A stretch of 61,910 nt of DNA, the filler included, from Pseudomonadota bacterium (lineage in GTDB: Bacteria; Desulfobacterota; Desulfobacteria; Desulfobacterales; JBDRRP01), in the NCBI GenBank assembly GCA_043825735.1. It is 4 parts of 4 records of this genome, joined end to end, with 100 filler letters (N's around TTAATTAATTAA, not from the genome) between each part and the next. Parts side by side here need not be neighbours in the genome. Positions count along the whole stretch, not along the records: positions 26,269 to 46,285 come from JBDRRP010000033.1; 3 more parts are not named here. One strand, written 5' to 3'. The first letter of the stretch is position 1. Each line of letters starts with the position of its first letter. Below, piece by piece: positions 26,169 to 58,649 of the stretch. The notes under the pieces were generated by a model. It ran no database searches, was not told the origin of the DNA, and saw only the letters and a list, made by a program, of their open reading frames with translations. The position numbers were made by a program, and so were the translations under genes.

Positions 26169-26268
26169 NNNNNNNNNNNNNNNNNNNNNNNNNNNNNNNN
26201 NNNNNNNNNNNNTTAATTAATTAANNNNNNNNNNNNNNNNNNNNNNNNNNNNNNNNNNNNNNNNNNNN
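26169..26268. other. Artificial contig linker
   Basis: N-run containing TTAATTAATTAA (stop codons in all six frames). Confidence 0.98.
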
Positions 26269-30092: not shown

Positions 30093-30140
30093 CGCCATCA
30101 ACAACAATGCAGTTCAATGCACAAGACATGGAGGAAGCAA

Positions 30141-30551
30141 ATGAAAAAGAATTCCTTGGTATTTATGATATCGCTGGTGTTTCTTCTGGCCGCCATCCCC
30201 GCCCTGGCGGATGACACCCTGATCCAGAGCATCACCGACGGATGCAACAAGGAACTCCATACCTATTGCAAGGATGTCACCCCGGGGCAGGGGCGCGGCC
30301 TGGCCTGTTTATACGCTCACGGCGACAAGCTGAGCAGCCGGTGTGAATATGCCCTGTACGATGCCGCCGCCCAACTGGAGCGGGCCGTGGCCGCGTTGGT
30401 ATACGTGGCCAATGAGTGTGGCGACGATCTGGACAAGTTCTGCCAGGATGTGCCCATCGGTGAAGGGCGGCTTTTGGACTGCCTTGACAAAAATGCAAAA
30501 AAGGTCAGCAAGCGCTGTAATGAAGCGATAAAGGAAGTCGGATTGAAATAG
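30141..30551 (+). CDS. Secreted cysteine-rich repeat protein
   Basis: Signal peptide and two C...C..V.(P/I)G.GR...CL......S.RC repeats; GGAGG RBS. Confidence 0.8.
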   Translation: MKKNSLVFMISLVFLLAAIPALADDTLIQSITDGCNKELHTYCKDVTPGQGRGLACLYAHGDKLSSRCEYALYDAAAQLERAVAALVYVANECGDDLDKFCQDVPIGEGRLLDCLDKNAKKVSKRCNEAIKEVGLK

Positions 30552-30947: not shown

Positions 30948-31619
30948 ATGAATATGAATGAATTCAATGCAAAAAAGTTCAGGAGCGGTGTCACACTGAA
31001 AAGGGCTCTGGTTGCCCAGGCCCTCGCTGCCGCCATCGGTTTTACGGCCGCTGCGGGCATTGTTTCAGCCGGGACGGCGACGCCAACTTCCGTGGCTGTA
31101 GACCACCAACTGCCCAAAGGCAAACAAACCACCCTGGGTCTCTATGTGACCGCCGCGCAGGCCTATGAAATGTGGAAAGCCGCGCCGGACAAGGTGACGG
31201 TGATCGACGTGCGAACACCCGAGGAGTACGCTTTTATCGGCCACCCGGCGATGGCGTGGAACATCCCCTTTGCCTTTGTCACCTATCAAAGAAAGAACGG
31301 CAAAACCGAATACGGCCCGAAGATAAACCCGGATTTTGTCGCCGAGGTTGCAAAGATGGCCGGGTCGACCGACACCCTGCTGCTCCTGTGCCGGTCCGGT
31401 GACCGCAGCGCCAGGGCCGTAGATGAGCTCGCTGCAGCCCGTTTTAAAAACGCTTACACCGTCACCGATGGATTTGAAGGCGATAAGGTGACGGATCCCG
31501 AAAGTGTCTTCTACGGGAAAAGGATGAGAAACGGGTGGAAGAACTCGGTCCCCTGGGTCTATGACATCGATCCCGAGAAGATCATCCTTGAAGAATTCGC
31601 ATTTAAGCAAACTCAATAA
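30948..31619 (+). CDS. Exported rhodanese-like sulfurtransferase
   Basis: Hydrophobic N-terminal leader, IDVRTPEEY, active-site loop CRSGDRS, and DGFEGD...NGWKN..PW. Confidence 0.88.
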   Translation: MNMNEFNAKKFRSGVTLKRALVAQALAAAIGFTAAAGIVSAGTATPTSVAVDHQLPKGKQTTLGLYVTAAQAYEMWKAAPDKVTVIDVRTPEEYAFIGHPAMAWNIPFAFVTYQRKNGKTEYGPKINPDFVAEVAKMAGSTDTLLLLCRSGDRSARAVDELAAARFKNAYTVTDGFEGDKVTDPESVFYGKRMRNGWKNSVPWVYDIDPEKIILEEFAFKQTQ

Positions 31620-31687
31620 TGGCGTGTAACAAGAGCGGCGAACAAGCCGATAGTTTTCCCTTAGACCTCATAAAAAAGGAAATCACC

Positions 31688-32854
31688 ATGACCGAACAGA
31701 AAAGAGTCAGCACGACAGTGCCATTGAACTGGAAAGAGGTGTGGTTCACCAACTGCCCCATGGTATCCGCCAATAACGTCGACCAGGAACTGGGCTGGTG
31801 CCGCGAGGAGTTCAAGAAGATCGGCGTCGAGTACGCCTACTTCCGCCACGCGCCCGAGAACAACTGGTACCCGCACTATATCCACAACCTCGACAACCTC
31901 ATCCGCTTCGGCGGCCTGTATCCCCCGATCCACGTTCATGCCGATATCCGCCGCACCGTGCTGCTGGGGGCGACCTGGGTCCATGAGGGTGGCGGTTTGG
32001 TGGTGCGCGCCCGAGACCCGTTCTCCCGCGTGAAGGATCTAAAAGGCAAGAAGATCGGTATTTCGAAGAGCCTGAACACCATCAAAAACGACTGGTGGCG
32101 CATCCAGGAGCACATGGCCATCGAAAATATTCTGATGCTCAACGACATGACCATGGACGATATCAAGCTCGTCGAGTTTCCCTACCCGGACGACTGGTAT
32201 GATAAACCCGAGATGCTCGTTCCGCCGATGAACAATCCGTCTGAGCTGTGGATGCGTCGCAACCACAAGCGCGACCTTGCATTCCGTCCGCTGGAAACGG
32301 CGCTTCTGGATGGCACTGTCGATGCCATCTACACGCAGAGCAAGGCTCTTCAACACCTGCAGGAGGCGACGGGCAAAATAAAAATGATCGTGGACTTGGC
32401 CAGGTTGCCGGACTGGACGTTGCAGGTCGCCAACACCCCCGCGGTCATCACCTGCACCGAAGTGATGGCCAAGGAACACCCAGAGCTGGTCGTCGCCTAC
32501 TTGAAGGCCATGGTCAAGGTCGGGCGCTGGGCCAACGAGCACAAGCGCGCCGCGGCAGTGCTCCTCAACAGACAGACGTTTTATCTCGACGCAGAAGATA
32601 CGTACCAGGGTATCAAGCACGTCGATATGGTGCCGAGCCTGTGCGCACAGAACCTTGAATGCATCAAGATCGGAAAAGACTTCATGGTCAGCCACGGCTA
32701 CATCAAGAACGACTTCGATGTGGACGCGTGGGCGGCCCCGGAATTACTGGAGCAGGCAGTGATGGCAGTGTTCAAGGAGGAGTGGGAAACAAAAAGCTGG
32801 AGCAAGCTTCCTCAGGGCGGCGGGATCGAGACAGAAGGCGTGCGAATCGGGTAG
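31688..32854 (+). CDS. DszB-like (desulfinase / SsuA-THI5 fold) protein
   Basis: FTNCPMVSA, HYIHNLDNLIRFGGLYPP, RTVLLGAT, DLKGKKIGIS and DAWAAPELL parallel Rhodococcus DszB motifs. No signal peptide. Confidence 0.8.
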   Translation: MTEQKRVSTTVPLNWKEVWFTNCPMVSANNVDQELGWCREEFKKIGVEYAYFRHAPENNWYPHYIHNLDNLIRFGGLYPPIHVHADIRRTVLLGATWVHEGGGLVVRARDPFSRVKDLKGKKIGISKSLNTIKNDWWRIQEHMAIENILMLNDMTMDDIKLVEFPYPDDWYDKPEMLVPPMNNPSELWMRRNHKRDLAFRPLETALLDGTVDAIYTQSKALQHLQEATGKIKMIVDLARLPDWTLQVANTPAVITCTEVMAKEHPELVVAYLKAMVKVGRWANEHKRAAAVLLNRQTFYLDAEDTYQGIKHVDMVPSLCAQNLECIKIGKDFMVSHGYIKNDFDVDAWAAPELLEQAVMAVFKEEWETKSWSKLPQGGGIETEGVRIG

Positions 32855-33024
32855 CCTGGCGAAGCCTCAACCGAAGTCGTGCCGCCTGCGTTCAAGGAGG
32901 CATCGCAACTTTCTTACGCTCAGCCACAACGCCGGCCTCCCAATCGAGAGGCCGGCGGGGTACTGGGTTGAGATCTCGTTAAAACAGTCATCATCCGGCT
33001 GTCAAATGTGCCGGTCACGCGCAA

Positions 33025-33381
33025 ATGGCAATGAACATCCCGCTTGTCTTTCAGACCTATCAATGGGACGCCGGCAAGCGGCATTTCTCCATGATACCCA
33101 ATTCGGATTTTGTCTCACAGGTGACCGCGTGGGCCAATCCCACCGACACGATCCTGGTCACGTGCCGGTCCGGGGGCCGCAGCGCCGCTGCGGTCAACCA
33201 ACTCGCAGCGACTGGTTTCACCAACGTCTATGATATTCTTGACGGTATGGAGGGTGACACGGTGAACGATCGCGAAAGCGTCTTTCACGGAAAACGGATG
33301 AAAAATGGCTGGAAAAACTCAGGATTGCCCTGGACCTACGACCTTGATCCGGAACGGATGCAGCTGCCTGAGCGCCAATAG
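33025..33381 (+). pseudogene. N-terminally truncated paralog of the rhodanese
   Basis: GHAQMAMNIP...CRSGGRS...DGMEGD...NGWKNSGLPW matches the second half of 30948-31619. The IDVR half and an RBS are missing. Confidence 0.65.
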
Positions 33382-33612: not shown

Positions 33613-34515
33613 ATGAAATGCCCCAAGTTTTTAAAAAAGGCAGCGGAAAGCAGAATTAAGTACAAAGCCTCACTCGGGCGGCGGATCCTGATGGTGCCGG
33701 TGGTGTTTGCCGCCATTGTGGCTGCAGGCCCTGCCCGTGTGTCATTGGCCCAATCATCGGCCGACCAGTGGCGTTTTGGGGTCACTCCGTACTTCTGGTT
33801 TATCAACCTCGCAGGGGACCTGAGATACAGTCCGATCGCCGGCGGCAGCCCGCACGTGGAAATCAGCAACAAAGACCTCTTGCAAAAACTCGATTTGGGT
33901 TTCATGCTCTCGGGAGAGGCGCGCAAGGGCCGGTGGTCGGTCTTCACCGACGTGATCTACTTCGACCTTTCCTCCCAGGAAAGCCGTGTGAAGGCCGTCG
34001 ATTTCAACCTCGGCGGTCCCGTCAACCCGACCAGCACCGCTTTGGACGCCGGGACCTCGTCGTCCCTGAAGGCCTGGGTATGGACGCTCGCAGGAAGTGT
34101 CGGGGTGGTCGATGGACCGGCAGTGACCCTCGAGGCGCTCGGTGGATTTCGCTACCTTGCGGCAGACGCGAGCACCGACTGGCGTTTGACCGCCACGGTC
34201 ACGGGCCCGGGCGCGGGCCAGGTATTCCAGCGGACGGGAAGTATCTCTCAGAGCGAGGATGTCTGGGACGCCATCGCCGGCGTGCGGGGCAAGGTGCGGC
34301 TTCGGGGCAGCCGATGGGCCATCCCCTATTATGCGGACATCGGTGCCGGAAATTCTGAGTTGACCTGGCAGGGGATGGCGGGACTGTCTTACGGGTTCGA
34401 TTGGGGCGAGGCCATCATCAACTATCGTTACCTGTATTATGATATGAAACAAGGTGGGCTCTTTGAAGATTTGCGCTTTGAAGGTCCGGGGATCGGAATA
34501 ACCTTTCGATTCTGA
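33613..34515 (+). CDS. Outer-membrane beta-barrel protein
   Basis: Signal peptide, WRFGVTPYFW, alternating amphipathic strands, and a terminal GPGIGITFRF (BamA signal Phe). Confidence 0.8.
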   Translation: MKCPKFLKKAAESRIKYKASLGRRILMVPVVFAAIVAAGPARVSLAQSSADQWRFGVTPYFWFINLAGDLRYSPIAGGSPHVEISNKDLLQKLDLGFMLSGEARKGRWSVFTDVIYFDLSSQESRVKAVDFNLGGPVNPTSTALDAGTSSSLKAWVWTLAGSVGVVDGPAVTLEALGGFRYLAADASTDWRLTATVTGPGAGQVFQRTGSISQSEDVWDAIAGVRGKVRLRGSRWAIPYYADIGAGNSELTWQGMAGLSYGFDWGEAIINYRYLYYDMKQGGLFEDLRFEGPGIGITFRF

Positions 34516-34691: not shown

Positions 34692-35228
34692 ATGAAAAAA
34701 GTGGGTATGATTATCGGCGCCGTAATGCTTTTGTTCATCGTGCTCTTCGGATGGTGGTTTTTCAGCCGTCCGGAACGCGGAACGACGGGATCGATCAGCA
34801 CGAAATTCCGATGGCTGGGCCCCAACGACAAGATCGTGGTCGACGGCTTCGACGACCCCAAAGTCAAGGGTGTCGCCTGCCACATTTCCCGGGCCCAGAC
34901 CGGCGGTGTGAAAGGCGCCGTGGGCGTGGCGGAGGACACAAGCGACGCCAGCATCGCCTGCCGTCAGATCGGGCCGATCGAGATCCTTGGCGAGATCAAG
35001 GACGGCGAGCGCGTCTTCGACGAGCGCCGCAGCCTCGCGTTCAAGACGCTTCAGGTCGTGCGCTTCTTCGACCCCGAGCGCAATGTGCTGGTCTACGTGT
35101 CCTACAGCGACCGGGTCATCGAGGGCAGCCCGAAGAACAGCATCAGCACGGTACCCATCATGCCCTGGCCGGCGCCATCACCACCGATCGAAAAGGCCGG
35201 ATCAGAAAACTCATCGCCTCAAAAGTGA
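34692..35228 (+). CDS. creA: CreA family protein
   Basis: [29 protein letters not shown]...[11 protein letters not shown]...[11 protein letters not shown]...GSPKNSIS. Confidence 0.9.
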
Positions 35229-35561
35229 ATACGCTTATGCAGAATGCGCCAGTAAGTCTCTTCGCACAGGGATGTTGAATCACGGCGTCATGTAGGGCAC
35301 GGAGATTTTATAATTCATATCTCGCGCAGAGACGCAGGGAAAAACACCCTCGCAATTCCATTTTTCGCAGTTCTCTGCGTCTCCGCGCCTCTGCGTGAGA
35401 AATATTCTCTTTGAGTTAAAAACCTCCGTGTGCTCCGTGAACTTTGCAGTGTCATGATTTTGTCCGATTGCAATGGTTTCCGGCTGTAGCTTGAGCATCC
35501 TGGATATGCGGTAAAGCAAAACACCCGCTATCAGTGATAGTGACTGACAGAGAAAGACGTA

Positions 35562-35834
35562 GTGAAAGGATTACACATGCGACCCGGAGCGGTGCATCCG
35601 ATACGCAGAAATCTTCTGCGTAACACCTTTAACGCGTTCTGTTTTGGTACCGCTGTTGCGGTCGGCGTGTTTGCGGTTGTCCCGATGGTTTGCGCAGAAA
35701 AAGGCGTTACGGAAGAAATCCTGGGCATCTTGAAAGAAAATGATCAAATCAGCCGGAGACTATTGGAAACAAACTCCGGCGCTACCGTCTATGAGATGGT
35801 CTTGATGACGGCGGGCTCATCGTGTAATAAATAA
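35562..35834 (+). pseudogene. Possible N-terminal remnant of a secreted/porin gene
   Basis: Signal-peptide-like segment then EKGVTEEILGILKENDQIS, resembling porin N-terminal helices, followed by an early stop. Confidence 0.3.
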
Positions 35835-35933
35835 CGGGATGAAATCCGGAGGCAGGGTGAGGGCGCCGGATACCGTCCAGCAGTGCACAAATACCCATCA
35901 GGCCCGGAAACAAGGAATAAAAAGGAGACCTGT

Positions 35934-38054
35934 ATGCTGTCAAATTCAGGATTACGCGCGGCCGCCCTCGTGGCAATGCTGGTGTTCTGCAGTGCCGCGG
36001 CGGTGAGCGCGCAGGAGCGCTCCGGTTGCGTGGCCTGTCATCTCGATGAAGCCATGCTCGTCAAGAATCTCAGCCTCACCAAGGCCAAGACATCGGCCTT
36101 GCAGTCCGGTGCCGGGTGAGGCGGCCAGGTGGTTCCGTTGGAACCGCAGCAGAAGGTCCTCGTTTCAGAAGCATTTCTTTCCACCGAACACGGTGAAGCC
36201 GGTTGTGAAACCTGCCACGGCGGCGACCCGGCCAGCAATGAGAAGGCGCTCGCCCATGCAAAAATGGATCCCAGCCCCTCGATCAACAAGCCCCGGGAAG
36301 CCTGCGGCGGGTGCCACGAAGAGATCGTGGCCACGGCCACCGATTCTTTGCACGCCACCCTGGCCACCTTTCCCGGAATGCTCGAGCGCCGGGCCAACAT
36401 GGATAAATGGGCGCAGGTCGACGAGGCGCGGCAGAACCACTGCAGCAGCTGCCACACGAGTTGCGGCGGTTGTCACGTGAGCCGGCCGCCATTTGCCCAG
36501 AAGGGGTTCGTCAAGGGGCACGTGTTCCAGAAGCATTCGGACCCGCTCAACCAGTGCACCGCCTGCCACGGAAGCCGTGTGGGCAATGAGTTCTACGGGA
36601 TGCGCGGCCAGGGGGATGTCCACGCCGCCAAATCAGGCATGGATTGCGTGAGCTGTCACAAGGCCAAGGAAATGCACGCCGCAGCGCCCGAGAATGCCAG
36701 GAGCCGGTACGACCTGAAGGAAATGCCGGAATGCATCGATTGCCACAAGGCGTTGCGGTCCGGGTCCGTGCGGGAACACACTATTCACAACGGCAAAGTG
36801 CAGTGCCAGGTGTGTCATTCCCAGACCTATGTCAACTGTTACAGCTGCCACGTGGGCAAGGACACCGAGGGGATCGCGTTCTTCCAGAACCAGCGGGAAG
36901 TGGAATCCATGAAGATCGGCCGCAATCCCGACCCGAAGGCCCCTGGTGCCGGGTACCGCTTCATGCTGGTCCGCCATGTGCCGTCGGATCCGGAGATGTT
37001 CGATGCTTACGGCAAGGAGGGCTTCACCAACTTCGCAAACGCACCCACCTGGAAACGGACCTCGCCGCACAACATCCAGCGGCGTACGTGGCAGGCTGCC
37101 AGTTGCAACCACTGTCATGGCAACCAGAAGCTGTTTCTTTCCGAGTCCGATCTGCTGGACTACGAAAAGGCTGCCAACCGGGCGGTGGTCGTCGCCTATG
37201 ATCGCGTACCAAAAGCGCGGCTCAAGACCCGGCACGTTACCGTGGATACGAGCAAGGTGCGCACCGACATGGTGGTGAGTGCTTTGCAATTGCACAACCA
37301 GCTCGAGGAGAAGGGCCTTGTGGTGATCGACGCCCGCAGCGCCGCGGCCTATGCCAAGGGGCACATCGAGGGCGCCATCCATTTTGATCCCGTGACGGGC
37401 GGCCTGCGCACCGGCGCCGACACGGATAAACCCTTTACGCTCGCGCCGCATTCGAAAGTTGCGGAAATTTTCGGGGATCTTGGGATCGCCGCTGGCGACC
37501 GGATCGTCGTCTATGATCAGAACGGCTCGCTGGCCGCCGCGCTGATCGCTGTCCTGGAATGGGCAGGGGCCACGCAGGTCTCCTACCTGGACGGCGGCAT
37601 CGAAGGGTGGCATCACGCCGGTTTTCACACCAGTACCATGGCGTCTACCCGCAAGGCCTGCGCTTTTGGCGGCAAGGAGCAACCATCATTGATCGAGGAC
37701 AGCGCCGGCTTGGCCAGGCTTAGTGAGATGCGCACCGCGGTGGTGCTGGACTCCCGTATGATCGACCGATTCCGGGGTATGACCAAACACGAAAAGGCCG
37801 GCCGGGCCGGGGCCATACCGGGGGCCGTCAATGTACCTTTCGGCGCGCTTTACATGGATAACGGTTTCCTGAAGCCGCCGCGGGAGTTGCTGTGGATGCT
37901 CCAAACCCACGGCATCACCCCGGACAAGACCGTCATCACCACCTGCGATACCGGCGTTGCCGCAGCGGACGCTTTTTTTATCCTGCGCTACCTCGGTTTT
38001 CCCGATGTGCGGGTCCACGACGAAGCCTGGGTGAACTGGAGCCGGACCCGGTAA
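35934..38054 (+). CDS. Probable selenoprotein: multiheme c-type cytochrome (11 CxxCH) fused to tandem rhodanese domains, Sec at codon 62
   Basis: AAGGAG RBS and signal peptide at 35934. The TGA at 36117-36119 is in frame with the 641-aa ORF (GAG-U-GG) and is followed by a SECIS-like hairpin. The downstream ORF has no signal peptide of its own. Confidence 0.8.
36117..36147 (+). promoter_or_regulatory. UGA plus bacterial SECIS-like hairpin
   Basis: Stem GTGGTTCC (36129-36136) / GGAACCGC (36140-36147); the loop GTT starts with G, 17 nt after the UGA. Confidence 0.65.
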
Positions 38055-38104
38055 CCTGGAAGCGTCTCCGCCCTGCCGTCATCCGGGCGCGCCGCCATTG
38101 AAAA

Positions 38105-38127
38105 GGCCGCAGCTTTTGGCTGCGGCC
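38105..38127 (+). terminator. Hairpin after the cytochrome gene
   Basis: GGCCGCAGC-TTTTG-GCTGCGGCC. Confidence 0.55.
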
Positions 38128-38387
38128 GCACTTAATAGTGGGTTGAAATGCCGTCGGTTCGTGCAGCGCATCTGCGCTCGGGTAATCTATATTGTTGAAA
38201 AAACCTTGCTGCCTTTCAGGGCTTTGTCGATGACATGGAACTGAGCGGTGCGAAGAATGCTGTCCAGCACCGGCAAAATCTCTGCCTTATTGAAGCCGTC
38301 AGCGGCAACCCTACCAGCGCTTTCATCCCTTTGCGCCGGTTCTGAAGTTCGTACTTGATCGGAAGCACCCCGTGTCCATCCAAAAAG

Positions 38388-38495
38388 CCCCCTCCCCTGG
38401 CCGGTGGGGACAAGGGCGGGGGCGTTCGGGAAAAGACGATCACTTGTTATCGGTGGGTTGTCACCCTCACCCCAGCCCTCTCATCAAGGGAGAGG
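38388..38495. repeat. REP-like doublet (CCCCTCCCC...GGG / CACCCTCACCCCAGCCCTCTC...GGGAGAGG)
   Basis: Two inverted GC-rich hairpin units. Confidence 0.55.
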
Positions 38496-38709
38496 CAGTA
38501 AGCGGCTTCCCATGGCTGGGCACAATCTAACTGCCGGTTTTTAGGAGCTCAACGCGGACCTTTTTTGACAGTAAATTAAGGATTATTGACCCTGCGGCCT
38601 TATCCGGTGTACTAAAATAACTTTACAAGCTTTATCTGCCGCCGATGACCGTGGAGCATCTGTCGTGGGGAGACAATCTTTGCTCGCCAAGGGCGCCCCG
38701 TGGTTGACG

Positions 38710-38850
38710 GGTGTTATCGAAATCGCTATCGGGATCGAAATCGCAATCGGCGGTTGCTGTTGCCACGGTGGCGGCAAATGGCGAACCAGGGACAAAATAA
38801 TTGCCAACACCAACACCCGATAGCGATACCGGTCCCGATAGCGATTTCGA
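38710..38850. repeat. Hexamer-rich palindromic element (copy 3)
   Basis: ATCGAAATCGCTATCGGGATCG...CGATAGCGATACCGGTCCCGATAGCGATTTCGA. Confidence 0.6.
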
Positions 38851-38894
38851 GGAACGGCGCGTTTTGCGGCAACATAGGGTTACTGGAGCTTCAT

Positions 38895-39027
38895 AGAGAA
38901 GCGTGAAAGTGATTTTGAACCGCAGAGACCGCAGAGGGCCGCAGAGAATATACTGAAGAATTTGTAAGTTATCTCTGAGCGCTCTGCGTCCTCTGTGGTG
39001 ATTTCAGACTTTTTTTACGGAGTTATA
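38895..39027. repeat. CGTAAAAAGT-family element, inverted relative to 421-555
   Basis: AAAGTGATTTTGAACCGCAGAGACCGCAG...CTCTGTGGTGATTTCAGACTTTTTTACGG is close to the reverse complement of 421-555. Confidence 0.75.
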
Positions 39028-39057: not shown

Positions 39058-40158
39058 ATGAGGTTCACTATGTCAAAGCAGACTTTACAACGGCTGGCCT
39101 GGCTTCTCTGCCTGTCGGTTGCCCTGGCGGCATGCAAAGATAAAGTTGAAATCATCGATGAGGTCCGGGCGATCAAGACACTGACCGTCAGTGAGCAAGC
39201 AAGCGGGCAGACCCTCAAATTTTCCGGGCAGGCCGCGGCGGTCGATTCCTCCGACCTCAGCTTTCAGGTGGGCGGGCAGGTGGCATCCGTGGCGGTTGAC
39301 ATCGGCGATCGGGTGAAAAAGGGGCAGGTGCTCGCCGTTCTCGATCCGGAGCCCTATCAGCTCGATGTGGATGCGATCACCGCAGAACTCACCAAGGCCC
39401 GGGACCAGGTAAAGGAAACAAAATCACAGTACGATCGCCAGCAGCGGATTTACGAGCAGGGGGCCGGGGTAAAAAGCCATTTGGATATCGCCGAATATAA
39501 ATTCAAGGCCGCCCAGAGCGCGGTTGATTTTCAGATGGCACGGCTGGATCAGGCCAACCGGAATCTGCGCAAAACGAAACTGCTTTCGCCTTACGACGGC
39601 ACCATCGCCTGGCGGTCGATGCAACCCAACGAAGAGGTCAAAGTCGGGCAGAAAGTGTTCTCGATCGATGCAACGGGGGAAATGGAAATTCAACTGGCCG
39701 TTCCGGAGACCGTCATCGGCCGCATCCATATCGATGACGCGGTGACGATCACCTTTCCCACGTTGCAGGGTGAGTCCACAAAGGGCCGGATTTCCTTCAT
39801 TGGGTCCGCCGCTGTTCAGGCCAACGCCTTTCCGGTCAAAGTGGCGCTGGTGGCCCCCAATGAAAAAGTCAAACCGGGCATGAGCGCCGAAGCCAATTTT
39901 ACCCTGACGGTCGACAATCGGACGGCCGGTTACATCCTGCCGCTTCAGGCCATCCTGCCAGCCCCGGAAGCCAACCAGGGATATGCCTTTGTGTATAACC
40001 CCCAGACATCCATGGTCAAAAAAACACCGGTCCGTTTCCAAGGCGTGGAACGGAAAAATGTCATCGTGACCGATGGCCTTTCGGCCGGGGACATCATTGC
40101 CGTGGCCGGTGTGAGTTTCTTGGCCGATGGCATGAAAGTCAAACTGATGCAGCAGTAG
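39058..40158 (+). CDS. RND efflux periplasmic adaptor (MFP) lipoprotein
   Basis: Lipobox LAAC, LSFQVGGQV..V.VDIGDRVKKGQVLA, SPYDGTI, KPGMSA and GLSAGD. Confidence 0.92.
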   Translation: MRFTMSKQTLQRLAWLLCLSVALAACKDKVEIIDEVRAIKTLTVSEQASGQTLKFSGQAAAVDSSDLSFQVGGQVASVAVDIGDRVKKGQVLAVLDPEPYQLDVDAITAELTKARDQVKETKSQYDRQQRIYEQGAGVKSHLDIAEYKFKAAQSAVDFQMARLDQANRNLRKTKLLSPYDGTIAWRSMQPNEEVKVGQKVFSIDATGEMEIQLAVPETVIGRIHIDDAVTITFPTLQGESTKGRISFIGSAAVQANAFPVKVALVAPNEKVKPGMSAEANFTLTVDNRTAGYILPLQAILPAPEANQGYAFVYNPQTSMVKKTPVRFQGVERKNVIVTDGLSAGDIIAVAGVSFLADGMKVKLMQQ

Positions 40159-40378
40159 ACTGGGCTCGAAGCACTGAGTGTGAACCACGAAGGACACGAA
40201 GTGCACGAAGAAAAACCAAAAAGCGAGTGGGTTAGAACACCTTCGTGAACTTCGTGGTGATCAAAAACATCGGGGCCTGCGAGGCACTGGCACTATCGTT
40301 TGAGTTTTGTGCATTACTATAACTTACTTTTCAGGGTATTGTCAGTCTTCTCCAGTCCCGGGACAAAAGGAACCGATA

Positions 40379-43300
40379 ATGAAAGGGATCACCGCATTTG
40401 CACTGAATAATTCTCGAACCGTCATCATGACGATATTGTTGGTGATTGTCGGGGGTGTTTCTGCATTCATAAGCCTTCCGAAACTGGAAGACCCCTTTAT
40501 TACGATTCGCGAAGCGGTGGTGACGGCAAAATATCCCGGCATGCCGGTAGCGGAAGTCGAGCGCCTGCTCACCCGGCCCATTGAAGAGAAAATCCGGAGC
40601 ATGGGCGAAGTCGACAAAATCAAGAACTCCACTTCCAAGTACGGCGAATGCCTGATCCATGTCACCATCAGCGATGCAGTGCCTGCCGAACAGCTTCCGG
40701 CAACGTGGAAACTGCTGCGAAACCGGATGGCCGATGTCAAACCCGAACTGCCGGAAGGCACCATCGGACCGATGGTCAACGACTCCTTCGGAGATACATC
40801 GGTGGCCACCATCGCCCTGTGGAGCGATGGGTTCGACATGGCGGAAATGCACGAAACCGCCCGCCAAATCCGGGAGCGCCTCAATCTGGTGAAGGGCACC
40901 CAGAAAATCGATCTTACCGGTGTGCAGGACGAGCGTATCTATATAGAGGTGTCGAACGCCAAGATGACGCAACTGGGCATCGATCCCGTCGATATCGGGA
41001 AAAAACTCAAGGAGCAGAACGTCTTATTACCCGGCGGCAGGATAGACATCAACGATGTGGAAATCATCGTGGAGACCGAGGGTCGGTTCGTGTCCATCGC
41101 GGACATCGGGGCGGTCCTCATCCCGATTCCCGGTTCCGAGGCCTCGATTCCGCTGCGCGACATCGCCACCATCCGGAAAGCCTACGTGGAGCCGATCCAG
41201 AACCCGGCCTACTACAATGGCCATCAGACCATTGTATTGAGCGTCTTTATCATCAAAGGGGTCGATGCCGTCGAGTACGGCGCGCGGCTCAAAAAAGCGG
41301 TCGCAGAGATGGAACAATCGCTGCCGTGGGGTTACGTGCTCGAATTCGCCACCTACCAGCCGGATCTCATCAAAAAATCCGTCAGCGGAATGGTGATCAA
41401 CGTGATCGAAAGCATCGCCATCGTCCTGGTGGTGGTCATGCTGCTGCTGGGGCTGAGAACCGGCTTGATCGTGGGCTCGTTTATCCCGCTGGTCATGTTG
41501 TTCGGCCTGTTGATGATGTCCGCGCTGGGGATCGATCTGGAACGGATGTCGCTGGCCACCATGATCATCGCGCTGGGCATGTTCGTGGACAACGCCATCG
41601 TGGTCTCCGACGACATCAAGGTGAATATGGAAACGGGGATGGACCGAAGGGATGCCGTGTTAAAATCCGGCAGCACCCTTTCGGTCCCACTGCTCACCAG
41701 CACACTGACCACCGTTTTCGCTTTCGGACCGATTCTGCTGCAAATCGGTATGGCCGGTGATTATACTGCCTCGCTGGGTTCGGTGATGATCATTCTGCTC
41801 ATGGGTTCGTGGTTTTTCTCCATGTTTTCATCCACCAGCATGTGCTACTGGTTTTTACCGACGACGCCGACCGGCGGCAGTAATCAACAGCCGGGGAGCG
41901 ATCCGTACCAGGGGAAATTCTACCGGATTTATCGCCGTATCCTGGAATTTTCCCTGCGCCAGCGGACGCTCGTGCTGGCCGTGACGGGCGGCGCATTCGT
42001 CGCCGCGATCTATGCGGCAACATTTATCCCGCAGGCCTTTTTCCCAAGCGGGGACCGAAACCAGTATTTGATCTATCTCGATCTTCCCGCCGGTACGCGC
42101 ATCGAGGAGACCGACCGGACCGTCAGACAGCTCAGCGCCTGGCTGCAGGATAAAACGGAGAACCCGGAAATCACCGGGACCATCGCCTACGTGGGCAACG
42201 GCGGACCGCGGTTTTTTCTGTCGCTGGCGCCGCTGGACCCGGACCCGTTCGTCGGGTTTTTGATCGTCAACACAGAGACCAACAAACAGGTCGCCGAACT
42301 CGTCCAGCGCACCGACCACTACCTTCAGAATCATTTTCCCAATGTCCGGGGCCGGGTCAAATCCATGTGGCTTGGGGGCAGTGAATCCGGCCTGTTGGAA
42401 ATCCGGCTCAGTGGCCCGGCCATCGACGTGCTGTGGGCGCAGGCCGAGCAGTTGATGGCCGCCTTGAGAGAGATACCCGGCACCCAGCAGATCAAACAGG
42501 ATTGGACCAACCGGGTGTTTACGGTCAAGGCGAATGTCGACCAGGCCCGGGCCCTGCGCGCCGGGGTGACATCCAAGGATGTGGCCACGGCCCTGGGTTT
42601 CTTTGTCGACGGCACGACCGCCACCAATTACCACCAGGGCAATGTCGAAATCCCCATCGTCGGGCGCGGGGTCAAGGAGGAACGGGATTCCCCCGACAGC
42701 CTGCGCTCGCTCGGCGTCCGTTCATCATCGGGCGGCAGCGTGCCGGTCAGCCAGGTGGCCGATGTATACGCCGTCGGTGAACTGAACCGTATCGTGCGCT
42801 ATAATCAGGAGCGCACCATTACCGTCAGCGCCAAAAACCAGGTGCTGAAAGCCTCGGAAATGTTCGCTGCCCTGAAGCCCACGCTGGCGGCGATGACGTT
42901 TCCGAAAAATCACTACTGGCATGTCGGCGCCGAACTCGAGGACTCCGCCACGGCTCAGAAGAACCTCTCAAAATGGCTGCTGCCGTGTTTTGGCGGCATT
43001 GTCTTTTTGCTGGTATGGCAGTTCAACTCCATCCGGCGGGCCGCCATCATTATCCTGACCATACCGCTGGTCATCGTCGGCTCCGTGGTAGGTCTGATAT
43101 TGATGCGGGCCGATTTCGGATTCATGGTCATCCTGGGGCTGCTGGCTCTGGCCGGGTCCATCGTGAACAACGGCATCGTGATGATCGATAAAATCGAGGA
43201 GAACCAGCGCGACGGGCAGACGCCCTATGATGCGGTCGTCAATTCGGCCGTCAGCCGGTTCCGGCCGATCCTGCTGTCGGTGTCGACCACCATGCTGGGT

Positions 43301-43465
43301 TTTTTGCCGCTGATCATCAATCACGATCCGCTGTTTTTCGGCATGGCATCGGTCATGTTCTTCGGGCTGGGCATCGGCAGTCTGTTTACGCTGAACTATG
43401 TGCCGGTACTTTACAGCATCTTTTTCAGAGTCAAATCACCGGCCGCCGGTGTGCAGCCCGGTTGA
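40379..43465 (+). CDS. RND efflux permease (AcrB/AcrD/AcrF family)
   Basis: About 1028 aa; LPKLEDP, ALGMFVDNAIVV, GSIVNNGIVMID and RFRPILLS. Confidence 0.95.
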   Translation: MKGITAFALNNSRTVIMTILLVIVGGVSAFISLPKLEDPFITIREAVVTAKYPGMPVAEVERLLTRPIEEKIRSMGEVDKIKNSTSKYGECLIHVTISDAVPAEQLPATWKLLRNRMADVKPELPEGTIGPMVNDSFGDTSVATIALWSDGFDMAEMHETARQIRERLNLVKGTQKIDLTGVQDERIYIEVSNAKMTQLGIDPVDIGKKLKEQNVLLPGGRIDINDVEIIVETEGRFVSIADIGAVLIPIPGSEASIPLRDIATIRKAYVEPIQNPAYYNGHQTIVLSVFIIKGVDAVEYGARLKKAVAEMEQSLPWGYVLEFATYQPDLIKKSVSGMVINVIESIAIVLVVVMLLLGLRTGLIVGSFIPLVMLFGLLMMSALGIDLERMSLATMIIALGMFVDNAIVVSDDIKVNMETGMDRRDAVLKSGSTLSVPLLTSTLTTVFAFGPILLQIGMAGDYTASLGSVMIILLMGSWFFSMFSSTSMCYWFLPTTPTGGSNQQPGSDPYQGKFYRIYRRILEFSLRQRTLVLAVTGGAFVAAIYAATFIPQAFFPSGDRNQYLIYLDLPAGTRIEETDRTVRQLSAWLQDKTENPEITGTIAYVGNGGPRFFLSLAPLDPDPFVGFLIVNTETNKQVAELVQRTDHYLQNHFPNVRGRVKSMWLGGSESGLLEIRLSGPAIDVLWAQAEQLMAALREIPGTQQIKQDWTNRVFTVKANVDQARALRAGVTSKDVATALGFFVDGTTATNYHQGNVEIPIVGRGVKEERDSPDSLRSLGVRSSSGGSVPVSQVADVYAVGELNRIVRYNQERTITVSAKNQVLKASEMFAALKPTLAAMTFPKNHYWHVGAELEDSATAQKNLSKWLLPCFGGIVFLLVWQFNSIRRAAIIILTIPLVIVGSVVGLILMRADFGFMVILGLLALAGSIVNNGIVMIDKIEENQRDGQTPYDAVVNSAVSRFRPILLSVSTTMLGFLPLIINHDPLFFGMASVMFFGLGIGSLFTLNYVPVLYSIFFRVKSPAAGVQPG

Positions 43466-43577
43466 TTCGGTGGGTATCTTCGTAAAAAAAATATTGAACC
43501 ACGGAGTTCAGGGAGGACACGGAGGGTTAATAGTGCCTGGCTGTGCACCATTCTCAAGCTGGTGTTCCGGCTGTTTC

Positions 43578-43731
43578 GTAGGGGAGGGGTTTATCACCTC
43601 CCGAAATCGGCGAAGATTTACCCAATCGTCCGGGTTCACCCATCACGGGCGGGGATCCGCCGTCGCCAAGGCTTCCGCCGCCGCTGCGCTAAGGCGGATA
43701 AAATGGCGGACAAGTCAACCCCGCACCCTAC
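43578..43731. repeat. GTAG-type REP doublet with nested palindromic inserts
   Basis: GTAGGGGAGGGGTTT...AACCCCGCACCCTAC, with the right unit split by TCCGCCGTCGCCAAGGCT...ATGGCGGACAAG. Confidence 0.6.
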
Positions 43732-43798
43732 ATGATCTATCGTTTCACGGCACCCATTTGGGATGCCACGATGAACGCTTTGTTGCAGCGATGAATAT

Positions 43799-44212
43799 TG
43801 ATGCTCCCATAAAAAGTCCGAATCTCTCGCAAAGCCGCAAAGATCGCAAAGTTAACACGTTGAAATTAAATAATTTTTTCTTTGCGTGCTTGGCGTCTTT
43901 GCGAGAAAATTGCTTTTTTACGGATTCATCAATATTGATGGCACCGTAAAAAGTCGAATTTTTCCTTTTTTCGTCATCCCGGACGAGTGAAACGAGATCC
44001 GGGATCCAGTGATTTCAAGCACTTCTGGACCCCGGCGGTCGCCGGGGTGACGGCTTTTCGGGCTTTTTACGGCTTTATCAAATTTGATAGAACCGCAAAA
44101 AGTGTTTTTGAAACACAGAGATCACAGCGGAACACGGAGAATTTAGCTAATAATTAATGGGTTATCTCTGTGTTCTCTGCGTCCTCTGTGGTGATTTCAG
44201 ACTTTTTATGAG
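43799..44212. repeat. Tandem array of three CGTAAAAAGT-family elements with different cores
   Basis: Units 43799-43931, 43936-44080 and 44085-~44212, separated by ATAT/AATT. Confidence 0.8.
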
Positions 44213-44222
44213 GGAGAGCGTT

Positions 44223-45845
44223 ATGGATACGGGCAACGTCTCTGCGGCAACTGAAAAGAAACAAACACGGTGCTTCCCCTGGCTGCTGGGGTTAGTGATC
44301 ATCGTGTCGACGATGAGCGGCTGCACAATGGTCGGGCCGGATTTTGTTAAGCCGGAGGCGTCGGTGCTCAATGACTGGACCGAGGCGCAGGCGTCGGGTG
44401 TCAGTGGCGGAGAAACCGACTACCGCAACTGGTGGCGAGTGTTCAACGACCCGGTTCTCGACAATTTGATCCAAAAATCCTATCAGCAGAACCTTTCCCT
44501 GCAGATTGCCGGTATCCGCATTTATGAGGCGCGCGCGCAACTGGGTATCGCTGTCGGTTATCTTTACCCCCAGCAGCAATCGGCTTCCGGAGAGCTGACA
44601 AACAACAAACTGAGCACAAGCACCACAACCCCCATTATCGACGACCGGTTCAATGCCATGAGCCTCGGCTTCGATGCCGCCTGGGAGGCCGATATCTGGG
44701 GCAAGTATCGTCGCTCGGTGCAATCGGGGGTCGCCAACCTGGAAGCGAGCGTCGCCAGTTATGACAACATTCTCGTATCGCTGACGGCCGAAGTCGCGCG
44801 CACCTACATCGTGATGCGCACGGTGGAGAAACGGTTGGAGATCGCCAAGGAGAATGTCCGGCTGCAGGAGCGATCTTTGCAGATTGCCGAAGTCCGGTTC
44901 AATGAGGGCGCCGTTTCGGAGTTGGATGTGGCCCAGGCCCAGATGTTGCTGAAGGACACCCAATCCCTGATTCCCCGGTTTGAAAGCAGTCTGCGCCAAT
45001 CCCAGAACGCACTGGCCACCCTGCTGGGCGTGCTGCCCGGCGAGCTGAAAGAAATGCTCAATGGTCCGGCTCGGATTCCGGCAGCCGCCGAGACCGTCAT
45101 TGTCGACGTCCCCAACAATCTTCTCCGGCGTCGACCGGACATCCGGTTGACCGAGCTTAGAGTCGCCTCCCAGAGCCCGCAGATCGGGATCGCCAAAGCA
45201 GACCTGTACCCTCATTTTTACCTGTTTGGTACCATTGGATGGCGTTCATCGGATGCCACTTCGGTATCGGGCCAGAATGATTTGGGCGATATCTTCAGCG
45301 AAAAAAGCCTGTTCTGGAGCGCCGGCCCTGGTTTCAGTTGGGATTTTCTCAACTACGGGCGGATCAGAAACCGAGTGCGGGTGGAAGATGCGCGCCTTCA
45401 ACAGCTTGTGATCAATTACAAAAATACGGTTTTAAACGCCCAGCGCGAAGTCGAAGATGCGATGGTGGCGTTTGCGCGTTCCAAGGAAGAGGAGCGGTTC
45501 TTGAAGGAGAGCGTCAGCGCTGCCCAGCGATCGGTGGCCATATCTTCGCTACAGTACAAAGAAGGGGCCACCGACTATCAAAGGGTGCTGGATTCCCTGC
45601 GTTTCCTGGCGACGCAGGCCGATCGTTTGACTGAGGTCAGCGGCCAGGTGGGCCAGCACCTCGTAGCCACCTACAAGGCCCTGGGCGGCGGCTGGCAGCT
45701 CAGGGAAGGCGAGGAAATCCTTTCGGAAAAGAACAGAGGCGAAATGACGGCGCGCACCAGCTGGGGGGGAATGCTGGATCCGGAAGGACTCCGACTGCCG
45801 GTTGACGACAGCACCCGCGCGGATTGGCAATGGCCGGACTGGTGA
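44223..45845 (+). CDS. RND efflux outer-membrane factor (NodT/TolC family) lipoprotein
   Basis: SGC-TMVGPDF lipobox, WWRVFNDPVL, WEADIWG, LLRRRPDIR and YKALGGGW. Confidence 0.93.
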   Translation: MDTGNVSAATEKKQTRCFPWLLGLVIIVSTMSGCTMVGPDFVKPEASVLNDWTEAQASGVSGGETDYRNWWRVFNDPVLDNLIQKSYQQNLSLQIAGIRIYEARAQLGIAVGYLYPQQQSASGELTNNKLSTSTTTPIIDDRFNAMSLGFDAAWEADIWGKYRRSVQSGVANLEASVASYDNILVSLTAEVARTYIVMRTVEKRLEIAKENVRLQERSLQIAEVRFNEGAVSELDVAQAQMLLKDTQSLIPRFESSLRQSQNALATLLGVLPGELKEMLNGPARIPAAAETVIVDVPNNLLRRRPDIRLTELRVASQSPQIGIAKADLYPHFYLFGTIGWRSSDATSVSGQNDLGDIFSEKSLFWSAGPGFSWDFLNYGRIRNRVRVEDARLQQLVINYKNTVLNAQREVEDAMVAFARSKEEERFLKESVSAAQRSVAISSLQYKEGATDYQRVLDSLRFLATQADRLTEVSGQVGQHLVATYKALGGGWQLREGEEILSEKNRGEMTARTSWGGMLDPEGLRLPVDDSTRADWQWPDW

Positions 45846-46285: not shown

Positions 46286-46385
46286 NNNNNNNNNNNNNNN
46301 NNNNNNNNNNNNNNNNNNNNNNNNNNNNNTTAATTAATTAANNNNNNNNNNNNNNNNNNNNNNNNNNNNNNNNNNNNNNNNNNNN
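46286..46385. other. Artificial contig linker
   Basis: N-run with TTAATTAATTAA. Confidence 0.98.
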
Positions 46386-58549: not shown

Positions 58550-58649
58550 NNNNNNNNNNNNNNNNNNNNNNNNNNNNNNNNNNNNNNNNNNNNTTAATTA
58601 ATTAANNNNNNNNNNNNNNNNNNNNNNNNNNNNNNNNNNNNNNNNNNNN
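58550..58649. other. Artificial contig linker
   Basis: N-run with TTAATTAATTAA. Confidence 0.98.

Follow-up and report, generated by a model that had tools for sequence, protein, structure and literature searches.

In the accessible part of a May 2026 review table of prokaryotic selenoproteins, three cytochrome-type families are given, namely ExtKL, the GSU2204 family and an octaheme cytochrome of the tetrathionate-reductase family (PMC13188914). MccSep/ExtKL (GSU2937-2936) of Geobacter sulfurreducens is a periplasmic multiheme selenocysteine (Sec) enzyme and a proven polysulfide reductase that also reduces selenite, the latter being its poorer substrate; of its five hemes the active one has His/Cys ligation, and its Sec, U325, lies on a D-G-U-P loop within a C-terminal Ig-like domain (PMC13510729). 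According to the same part of the review, the family TIGR04315, that of OTR from Shewanella oneidensis (1sp3), includes Sec forms annotated in GenBank (PMC13188914). Here we describe a gene at positions 35934-38054 of a stretch of 61,910 nucleotides (hereafter the window, meaning the whole stretch that was analyzed) from assembly GCA_043825735.1. The gene is interrupted by an in-frame TGA and very probably encodes a selenoprotein in which a multiheme cytochrome is fused to a rhodanese. Among multiheme cytochrome selenoproteins it stands apart by its scaffold, by where its Sec lies and by its obligate rhodanese partner, and its family is not among the prokaryotic selenoproteins in the accessible part of the review table (PMC13188914).

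The original prediction, a hidden selenoprotein joining an 11-heme cytochrome c to a tandem rhodanese, had drawn an analogy to the Sec-containing cytochrome of the Geobacter ext cluster. That background is correct, since extKL is MccSep (PMC13510729), but the protein studied here is not of the MccSep family, as its 11 hemes, the placement of its Sec and the lack of an NF040886 match indicate. The two do share several features: both appear as periplasmic multiheme c-type cytochromes with one Sec, in both the UGA splits the annotated gene and is closely followed by a selenocysteine insertion sequence (SECIS) hairpin, the main hosts of both are Desulfobacterota and Nitrospirota, and each has a rhodanese partner, which in the Geobacter cluster is ExtH and in the present family is either fused or encoded next door. 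In contrast, no kinship in sequence was detected, as NF040886 (cut-off 250 bits) gave no match at E ≤ 0.1 on the protein and none in the whole genome, there are 11 hemes as compared to 5, the Sec, residue 62, belongs to an N-terminal G-x-G-U-G-G loop, the cytochrome part is without a conserved heme-ligating Cys, and the rhodanese is covalently fused. The models for ExtM (NF040943, 31.7 bits vs. a cut-off of 800) and ExtH (NF040901, 21 bits vs. 200) also stayed below their thresholds.

The best structural match of the cytochrome domain is OTR, which is a resemblance of fold only. Both would be periplasmic multiheme enzymes, and OTR reduces sulfur compounds, as this protein does by our proposal. 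However, TIGR04315 scored 20.1 bits (E 6.2e-4) over profile positions 176-251 only, against a cut-off of 375, OTR has 8 heme motifs as compared to 11 and no rhodanese fusion, the Sec of the present protein lies in an N-terminal module ahead of the part that aligns with OTR, and the motif NNF-[C/U] before heme motif 2 is absent. The same genome holds two true members of TIGR04315, with 509 bits each (L108, G000:C129:112928-114193 on the minus strand, and L107, G000:C107:248175-249503 on the plus strand). These two OTR genes are a Sec/Cys paralog pair, one having NNF-U with an in-frame TGA and 13 CxxCH motifs in its open frame and the other NNF-C.

The rhodanese part resembles the tandem sulfurtransferases RhdA (1e0c), Escherichia coli SseA (1urh) and human MST (4jgt), with an Asp in the inactive domain 1 and the catalytic Cys in domain 2. 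Those enzymes are stand-alone and cytoplasmic or mitochondrial, whereas the rhodanese here is the exported tail of a cytochrome and has the active-site loop C-D-T-G-V-A. In the Sud-Psr system of Wolinella succinogenes, a periplasmic rhodanese-like polysulfide carrier feeds a molybdopterin reductase. The likeness is that of a periplasmic rhodanese-type carrier that passes sulfane sulfur to a respiratory reductase; the difference is that Psr is a molybdopterin enzyme, while the present protein would be a Sec and heme protein with its carrier fused.

The window consists of four contigs joined by runs of N (26169-26268, 46286-46385 and 58550-58649), the first of which, C32, covers 1-26168. The selenoprotein gene sits on the second, C33 (20,017 bases, 26269-46285), and because the contigs are joined by N the sequence outside 26269-46285 has no physical linkage to it. 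The gene has the following features:

35924..35927, + strand: ribosome-binding site GGAG, 6 nt before the ATG, read from the sequence
35934..36011, + strand: putative signal peptide, residues 1-26 (MLSNSGLRAAALVAMLVFCSAAAVSA, followed by QE), from the translation, by eye
36027..36041, + strand: heme-binding motif 1, CVACH, residues 32-36, before the UGA and invariant in the 10-sequence alignment A1
36117..36119, + strand: in-frame UGA, very probably read as selenocysteine U62, motif G-x-G-U-G-G, from orthologs and Cys homologs
36129..36147, + strand: predicted bacterial SECIS hairpin, 8-bp stem, loop GUU, from fold and covariation
36204..37118, + strand: heme-binding motifs 2-11, residues 91-395, multiheme cytochrome core, from CxxCH, Pfam and model
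37281..37616, + strand: rhodanese domain 1, non-catalytic, Asp528 in VVYD, from PF00581 and alignment to RhdA and MST
37686..38042, + strand: rhodanese domain 2, catalytic Cys671 (codon 37944-37946), loop C-D-T-G-V-A, from alignment and Foldseek
38052..38054, + strand: true stop codon TAA, from the sequence

Inspection of the sequence agreed with what had been described for the two open reading frames (ORFs). They run from 35883 to 36119 and from 36129 to 38054 in the same frame, and the sole break between them is the TGA at 36117-36119, in the context SGAG-U-GG. Counted from the ATG at 35934 the TGA is codon 62 and the rest of the frame is open to the TAA, which gives a chain of 706 residues, as predicted. 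The upstream part bears the ribosome-binding site, the signal peptide and the first CxxCH, and translation of the downstream part gave ten further CxxCH and no export signal. The signal peptide, as judged by eye, has a positive n-region, a hydrophobic core and an AxA-like cleavage site between AVSA and QE, and an AlphaFold2 model places a helix of low confidence at residues 5-24. Taken by itself, the downstream ORF thus holds ten heme motifs that require maturation in the periplasm, yet no signal for export.

If the TGA is read as Sec, homologs were expected to have either TGA or Cys at codon 62, and both were found. In a six-frame search of a set of 60 related genomes, nine places in eight of them matched the cytochrome part (42-53% identity). 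All nine have exactly one in-frame TGA, and translation and alignment put this TGA in a common motif, G-[AE]-G-U-G-G. No match was obtained by six-frame search in the single genome of the same genus nor in the single other genome of the same family, and the gene is thus patchily distributed. A scan of one genome per prokaryote species gave 421 stretches that encode a relative, the best 80 of which were analyzed. Here the TGA was present at the site in 77 of the best 80 loci, 71 by a strict pattern and 6 with Q or V variants of the next motif, and the read-through frames of these 77 are mostly 698-738 residues long with 11 CxxCH. Two of the other three end at a contig edge before the site and the third (L097) is without the N-terminal module, which leaves the TGA in 77 of 78 loci whose sequence extends to the site. 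Cys was found at the Sec site in none of the best 80 loci and in none of the close relatives.

More distant homologs were collected by an exhaustive, profile-free search of 1.84 billion representatives, which gave 541 matches at E ≤ 0.001, many of them beginning at query residues 66-72, that is, past the TGA. We aligned 29 full-length non-Sec representatives extending across the site; five or more others (among them P0232, P0234, P0244, P0250 and P0262) were not included. Cys was found at codon 62 in 10 of these, for example as GEG-C-GG or xCCGG, while the Sec column held W in 4, Y in 3, G in 3 and another residue or a gap in 9. Two of the Cys forms, P0157 and P0177, have vicinal cysteines at the Sec position (E-C-C-G-G), and a distant homolog of 715 residues that is itself fused to a rhodanese, P0124, has Tyr there (GEG-Y).

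Some aberrant copies were also seen among the homologs. L097 is a second copy in a Rokubacteria metagenome-assembled genome (MAG), without the heme-1/Sec module, and L068 is likewise a second copy in one MAG. L069 and L072 were rejected as recoded genes, being frameshifted between cytochrome and rhodanese. These four variants are pseudogenes or assembly errors. A second in-frame TGA in L101 and L102 was rejected as well, as the TGA of L101 is directly followed by TAA and a separate rhodanese gene bearing a signal peptide comes next.

The predicted 8-bp hairpin is present, with a GUU loop whose G lies 17 nt after the UGA; its stem (36129-36136/36140-36147) begins 9 nt after the UGA, and by fold comparison a common hairpin is found in homologs too. 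In the accessible part of the review, a bacterial SECIS is a downstream stem-loop with a small apical loop and a G among its first positions, 16-37 nt from the UGA (PMC13188914), and the hairpin, with its 8-bp stem, GUU loop and distance of 17 nt, agrees with this description. Pairing was analyzed in 85 sequences (78 distinct). Hairpin cells were paired in 94.4% of cases, as compared to 37-50% when the 3' partner was slid by 1-3 columns, and five of the eight stem pairs showed compensatory changes on both sides. None of 500 shuffles matched any of five pairing measures; as the sequences are related this count is not a probability, whereas the slid controls and the compensatory swaps are independent of kinship. 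The swap is visible at the protein level, since an exchange of Ala and Glu keeps the stem: one clade has V-A-P-L-E-P (GGCUCC...GGAGCC) and another V-E-P-L-A-P (GGAGCC...GGCUCC). Third codon positions were 0.91-0.99 conserved within the stem and 0.33-0.77 before and after it.

The genome, which is 100% complete by marker genes in 160 contigs, was examined for the Sec machinery and all of selA, selB, selD and tRNA-Sec are present. SelA was found by profile search (536.9 bits), the SelB wing domain was found twice (C88 and C107), two SelD were over the cut-off (C107:101127-102053 and C73:10878-11801), each with one in-frame TGA, and ARAGORN identified two tRNA-Sec (tca) genes (C62:68966-69063 and C107:92540-92631). 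One full set is clustered on C107, and such doubling points either to an organism rich in selenoproteins or to sets that differ in origin. The prediction of a hidden selenoprotein thus has support from four lines independent of one another, the conserved TGA, the covarying SECIS, the complete Sec machinery and the Cys homologs, and on these comparative data the two ORFs almost certainly form one Sec-containing polypeptide in which the TGA is read as selenocysteine.

The 11 CxxCH motifs are at residues 32, 91, 124, 170, 177, 208, 238, 267, 291, 302 and 391, one before the TGA and ten after it, and Pfam gave Cytochrome_C7 at 41.3 bits (cut-off 24.8) and Cytochrom_c3_2 at 28.6 bits (cut-off 25). 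With several CxxCH, an export signal by eye and Pfam models over their cut-offs, the protein qualifies as a multiheme cytochrome c. In A1, an alignment of 10 Sec-containing sequences, all heme motifs are invariant and so are eleven His outside the motifs (H86, 108, 140, 169, 196, 230, 248, 282, 285, 348 and 379). The full-length AlphaFold2 model, built with 96 sequences, has a pLDDT of 90.7 and a pTM of 0.88, the Sec loop being its least confident internal part (71-81), and the model of the cytochrome domain only has a pLDDT of 92.9. A search of the PDB by sequence with the whole protein gave rhodanese matches only and no cytochrome, and Foldseek with the full-length model gave sulfurtransferases only. 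With the cytochrome-domain model, the best fold match was 1sp3 (VIA-align Z 9.5, rmsd 4.1 Å over 257 residues, 18% identity; the next row had Z 4.8), and Foldseek gave the same structure at E 1.3e-3 and prob 0.99. The part aligned with 1sp3 is model residues 56-404, and the Sec, model residue 35, lies before it. Judged by these models, the predicted cytochrome domain is a distant structural cousin of OTR with three more hemes and an added N-terminal module that holds heme 1 and the Sec loop.

The C-terminus was expected to consist of an inactive (VVYD) and an active (TTCDTG) rhodanese domain, and this is what the alignments gave, with Asp528 and Cys671 as the respective residues. PF00581 matched in two stretches with 110.7 bits (cut-off 22.2). 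The C-terminal 262 residues align across both domains of RhdA, SseA and human MST (E 4e-25 to 5e-24), Cys671 aligning with the catalytic Cys of Azotobacter vinelandii RhdA (1e0c) and of human MST (4jgt) and Asp528 standing at the equivalent place in domain 1. Foldseek gave rhodanese matches, MST included, at E 5e-20 with a TM of about 0.8 on the target. In the predicted structure, a single-chain model only, the fusion of cytochrome and rhodanese folds as one body.

The majority of close relatives share the fusion of the window gene, and eleven loci (L012-L017, L023, L101, L102, L105 and L106) are cytochrome-only. In all eleven a rhodanese gene lies directly downstream on the same strand; nine of these genes encode a single domain, those of L101 and L102 a tandem one, and both of the downstream rhodanese sequences that were inspected have N-terminal hydrophobic leaders. 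That cytochrome and rhodanese are obligate partners is therefore strongly supported. The history of the fusion was followed in a quick maximum-likelihood tree (IQ-TREE, SH-aLRT support) of 90 cytochrome domains, with a midpoint root for drawing and unrooted logic; near-duplicate, partial or broken sequences were omitted (L032, L037, L050, L052, L057, L058, L060, L063, L065, L066, L068, L069, L072, L074, L076, L077, L079, L082, L086, L088, L090, L091, L100 and P0198). All 51 fused rows fall on one side of a branch with an SH-aLRT of 96, and their nearest neighbours are L101 and L102, which have the separate tandem-rhodanese gene. This pattern fits a single fusion of neighbouring genes. The window gene is inside the fused group, where it pairs with a Desulfosarcina MAG (82-83% identity). 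The larger clade around it is a mixture of MAGs labelled Geobacteraceae, Syntrophaceae, Nitrospirota and Anaeromyxobacteraceae, a hint of lateral transfer or of errors in binning. Fused Sec forms were also found in MAGs labelled Promethearchaeota archaeon (L094) and Pseudomonadota (L039); they nest among Desulfobacterales/Desulfobulbaceae rows, and the labels probably reflect mis-binning rather than true hosts.

Annotation pipelines were predicted to split the gene in two, and this could be seen directly in a collection of 5.8 billion proteins that was searched with the 439-residue cytochrome query. All 120 best matches begin after the TGA; they cover at most 85% of the query and most are 632-652 residues long. 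Among 8000 candidates scored, 1893 clusters at 90% identity reached E ≤ 0.001. Those matches that bear a name are listed as '3-mercaptopyruvate sulfurtransferase SseA', 'thiosulfate/3-mercaptopyruvate sulfurtransferase', 'rhodanese-like domain-containing protein' or 'hypothetical protein'. No NCBIfam model reached its cut-off on the protein, although 13 families matched at E ≤ 0.1, and the name SseA is unjustified because the SseA equivalog NF008557 scored 116.2 bits against a cut-off of 250. The family is common in MAGs of Desulfobacterota, Nitrospirota and Rokubacteria and is mis-annotated in every database copy inspected. A description of it was not found in the literature, a search that lay outside the homolog lists S1/S2 supplementing PMC13510729.

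The evidence strongly supports a single exported chain that combines 11 heme sites, a lone Sec on a flexible glycine-rich loop and one rhodanese Cys. It is likewise strongly supported that a Sec-type signal peptide directs this chain to the periplasm for attachment of 11 c-type hemes, that SelB reads the UGA at codon 62 as selenocysteine under the guidance of the hairpin 9-30 nt downstream, and that the Sec lies in a G-A-G-U-G-G loop between heme motifs 1 and 2. For the mechanism we propose the following route. The rhodanese may load sulfane sulfur, whether from polysulfide, thiosulfate or a carrier persulfide, onto Cys671 as a persulfide, and the U62 selenolate would attack this persulfide, or free polysulfide, to form an Se-S intermediate. 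Electrons from the menaquinol pool could arrive by way of a NapC/NirT-type or other periplasmic cytochrome and pass along the 11-heme chain, where they would reduce the Se-S intermediate and release sulfide. The enzyme would in that case be a molybdenum-free, Sec-dependent sulfane-sulfur/polysulfide reductase, like MccSep together with a Sud/ExtH-type carrier on an OTR-like scaffold. We infer this mechanism by analogy with MccSep, Sud-Psr and the Sec arm of thioredoxin reductase, which is a mobile one. For this full mechanistic statement we estimate a rough probability of 0.55. A function as a sulfur (chalcogen) redox enzyme in general is likely, and the obligate rhodanese, either fused or next gene in 11/11 unfused loci, strengthens the proposal of polysulfide, thiosulfate or selenium-oxyanion redox chemistry, which is still inference; reductive sulfane-sulfur/polysulfide chemistry specifically is a tentative assignment, falling just short of even odds. 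Possibly, the family arose independently as a second class of enzymes that combine heme and selenium, with the lone Sec on its glycine-rich loop acting as a mobile redox arm between an 11-heme wire and the persulfide of the fused rhodanese; it would be either a molybdenum-free sulfane-sulfur/polysulfide reductase or a reversible sulfur oxidoreductase, an idea that we consider rather doubtful. On that reading U62 might, in the resting state, even occupy the distal axial position at heme 1 (His/Sec ligation).

Several observations weigh against this proposal or parts of it. W, Y, G, L, H or another residue stands at the Sec site in 19/29 distant homologs, and the scaffold can thus do without a chalcogen residue there; the homolog L068 carries a TAA ten codons past the TGA (L068:6184-6231). 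An Rfam search at E ≤ 10 over 35000-39000 gave no SECIS family (its only matches were the palindrome at 38720-38847 described below and COG3860, at E 6.6), and the folding energy of the 64 nt after the UGA was not distinguishable from that of shuffled sequence (z = -0.74). With an unremarkable fold energy the case for the SECIS depends on the comparative data. A1 shows no invariant Cys in the cytochrome part beyond those of the heme motifs, unlike MccSep with its heme-ligating Cys. With one conserved His for each heme, none of the hemes is plainly free to bind a substrate, nor is a heme-ligating Cys evident. The gene is solitary between creA (34692-35228) and an RND efflux operon (39058-45845), and an electron donor was therefore not identified in the window; nor was a conserved neighbourhood of the fused gene found in 14 loci examined. 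The direction of the reaction and its substrate (polysulfide, thiosulfate/tetrathionate or selenite) are not readable from the sequence. A NapC/NirT-type multiheme cytochrome of about 480-500 residues does adjoin the gene in 3 of the 14 loci (L031:4440-5939, L049:8126-9568 and L074:8200-9642) and is a candidate quinol-oxidising electron donor, although none is present on the window's contig. Sulfur-transport neighbours were seen as single cases only, YeeE-type in L087, TauE in L047 and SulP in L045.

The alternative that survives best, though we regard it as unlikely, is that the same selenoprotein runs oxidatively, loading sulfur from sulfide, polysulfide or thiosulfate onto the rhodanese and Sec and sending electrons out through the 11 hemes into the pool of periplasmic cytochromes, in sulfur oxidation or disproportionation instead of sulfur respiration. 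Many holders of the gene are labelled Desulfocapsa, Desulfofustis, Desulforhopalus, Desulfurivibrionaceae or Desulfobulbaceae, groups with members that disproportionate sulfur or oxidise sulfide. Electron flow along a heme wire can in principle go either way. The authors of the MccSep study remark that the mechanism of their enzyme may amount to thiosulfate oxidation, as carried out by TsdA and SoxAX, in reverse (PMC13510729). However, nothing in the sequence fixes a direction, MAGs of Syntrophaceae, Geobacteraceae, Nitrospirota and Rokubacteria carry the family as well, and its closest analogues with a characterised function, MccSep and OTR, both work as reductases.

Somewhat less probable is that the physiological substrate of the selenoprotein, like that of OTR, is an S-S-bonded sulfur oxyanion (tetrathionate or thiosulfate) and that the rhodanese binds thiosulfate. 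OTR (1sp3) is the best fold match and TIGR04315 does match weakly (20 bits, E 6e-4), the tandem domain is closest to thiosulfate/mercaptopyruvate sulfurtransferases, and thiosulfate is the classical substrate of rhodaneses. Against this, the OTR motif NNF-[C/U] is absent and the TIGR04315 score of 20 bits is far from 375. The open heme of OTR is Lys-ligated, and as each of the 11 hemes here has a CxxCH and a candidate distal His, there is no such open, Lys-ligated heme.

A function in selenite or tellurite reduction, in detoxification or in selenium delivery rather than in sulfur respiration is improbable to a slightly greater degree. Rhodaneses can carry selenium, and NCBIfam calls the Geobacter ext cluster the 'selenite/tellurite reduction operon', to whose ExtM and ExtH models the protein has weak matches (31.7 and 21 bits). 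These are far under the cut-offs of 800 and 200 bits, and no selenium-specific neighbours were present in the 14 loci. MccSep reduces selenite too, but as a poorer substrate (PMC13510729).

That the TGA is a real stop, leaving a 61-residue monoheme peptide and a 641-residue protein from the GTG at 36129, or a pseudogene, is very improbable: every pipeline reads the TGA so and L068 has its further in-frame TAA, but the TGA is fixed at one in-frame codon across 86 homologs down to 42% identity, the hairpin covaries and its synonymous sites are constrained, the downstream ORF has ten heme motifs and no export signal, distant homologs have Cys at the site and the Sec machinery is present.

The surroundings of the selenoprotein gene on C33 hold these further features, the first six being upstream of it:

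26415-29159: MalT-type LuxR regulator
30117-30551: Cys-rich-repeat protein
30948-31619: rhodanese
31619-32854: SsuA-like binding protein
33025-33381: small rhodanese
33613-34515: ORF of 300 residues, function not assigned
38104..38126, + strand: GC-rich inverted repeat after the stop, terminator-like, with no T run behind it, read from the sequence

The closest ortholog, L045, is likewise flanked by a MalT-type regulator and a Cys-rich-repeat protein. A second TGA-split rhodanese at 32659-33381 was considered and rejected, as the stop between its parts is not TGA and the upstream ORF overlaps the gene at 31619-32854. Between the selenoprotein gene and the RND operon lies a long palindrome/hairpin (38720-38847) with a sub-threshold Rfam match to a plant microRNA precursor (MIR7526-like) on both strands (35.9/31.5 bits vs. 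a gathering threshold of 110).

Multiheme cytochrome selenoenzymes were experimentally established only with MccSep in 2026, and the present family would be a second, structurally unrelated solution. The database copies that we inspected are without the signal peptide, the first heme and the Sec and are labelled as a cytoplasmic-type sulfurtransferase; reconstructions of sulfur-cycling Desulfobacterota consequently miss a periplasmic redox enzyme and miscount selenoproteins. The protein is a testable candidate for the reduction or disproportionation of sulfur compounds in organisms without a clear enzyme for that, and a natural case for electron transfer from heme to a selenenyl sulfide. On the rather doubtful reading of a second class of heme and selenium enzymes with a mobile Sec arm, it could be the main sulfane-sulfur/polysulfide enzyme in many Desulfobulbia, Desulfobacterales, Syntrophia and Nitrospirota; in sediments and groundwater it would then supply a step hitherto missing from sulfur respiration or from disproportionation.

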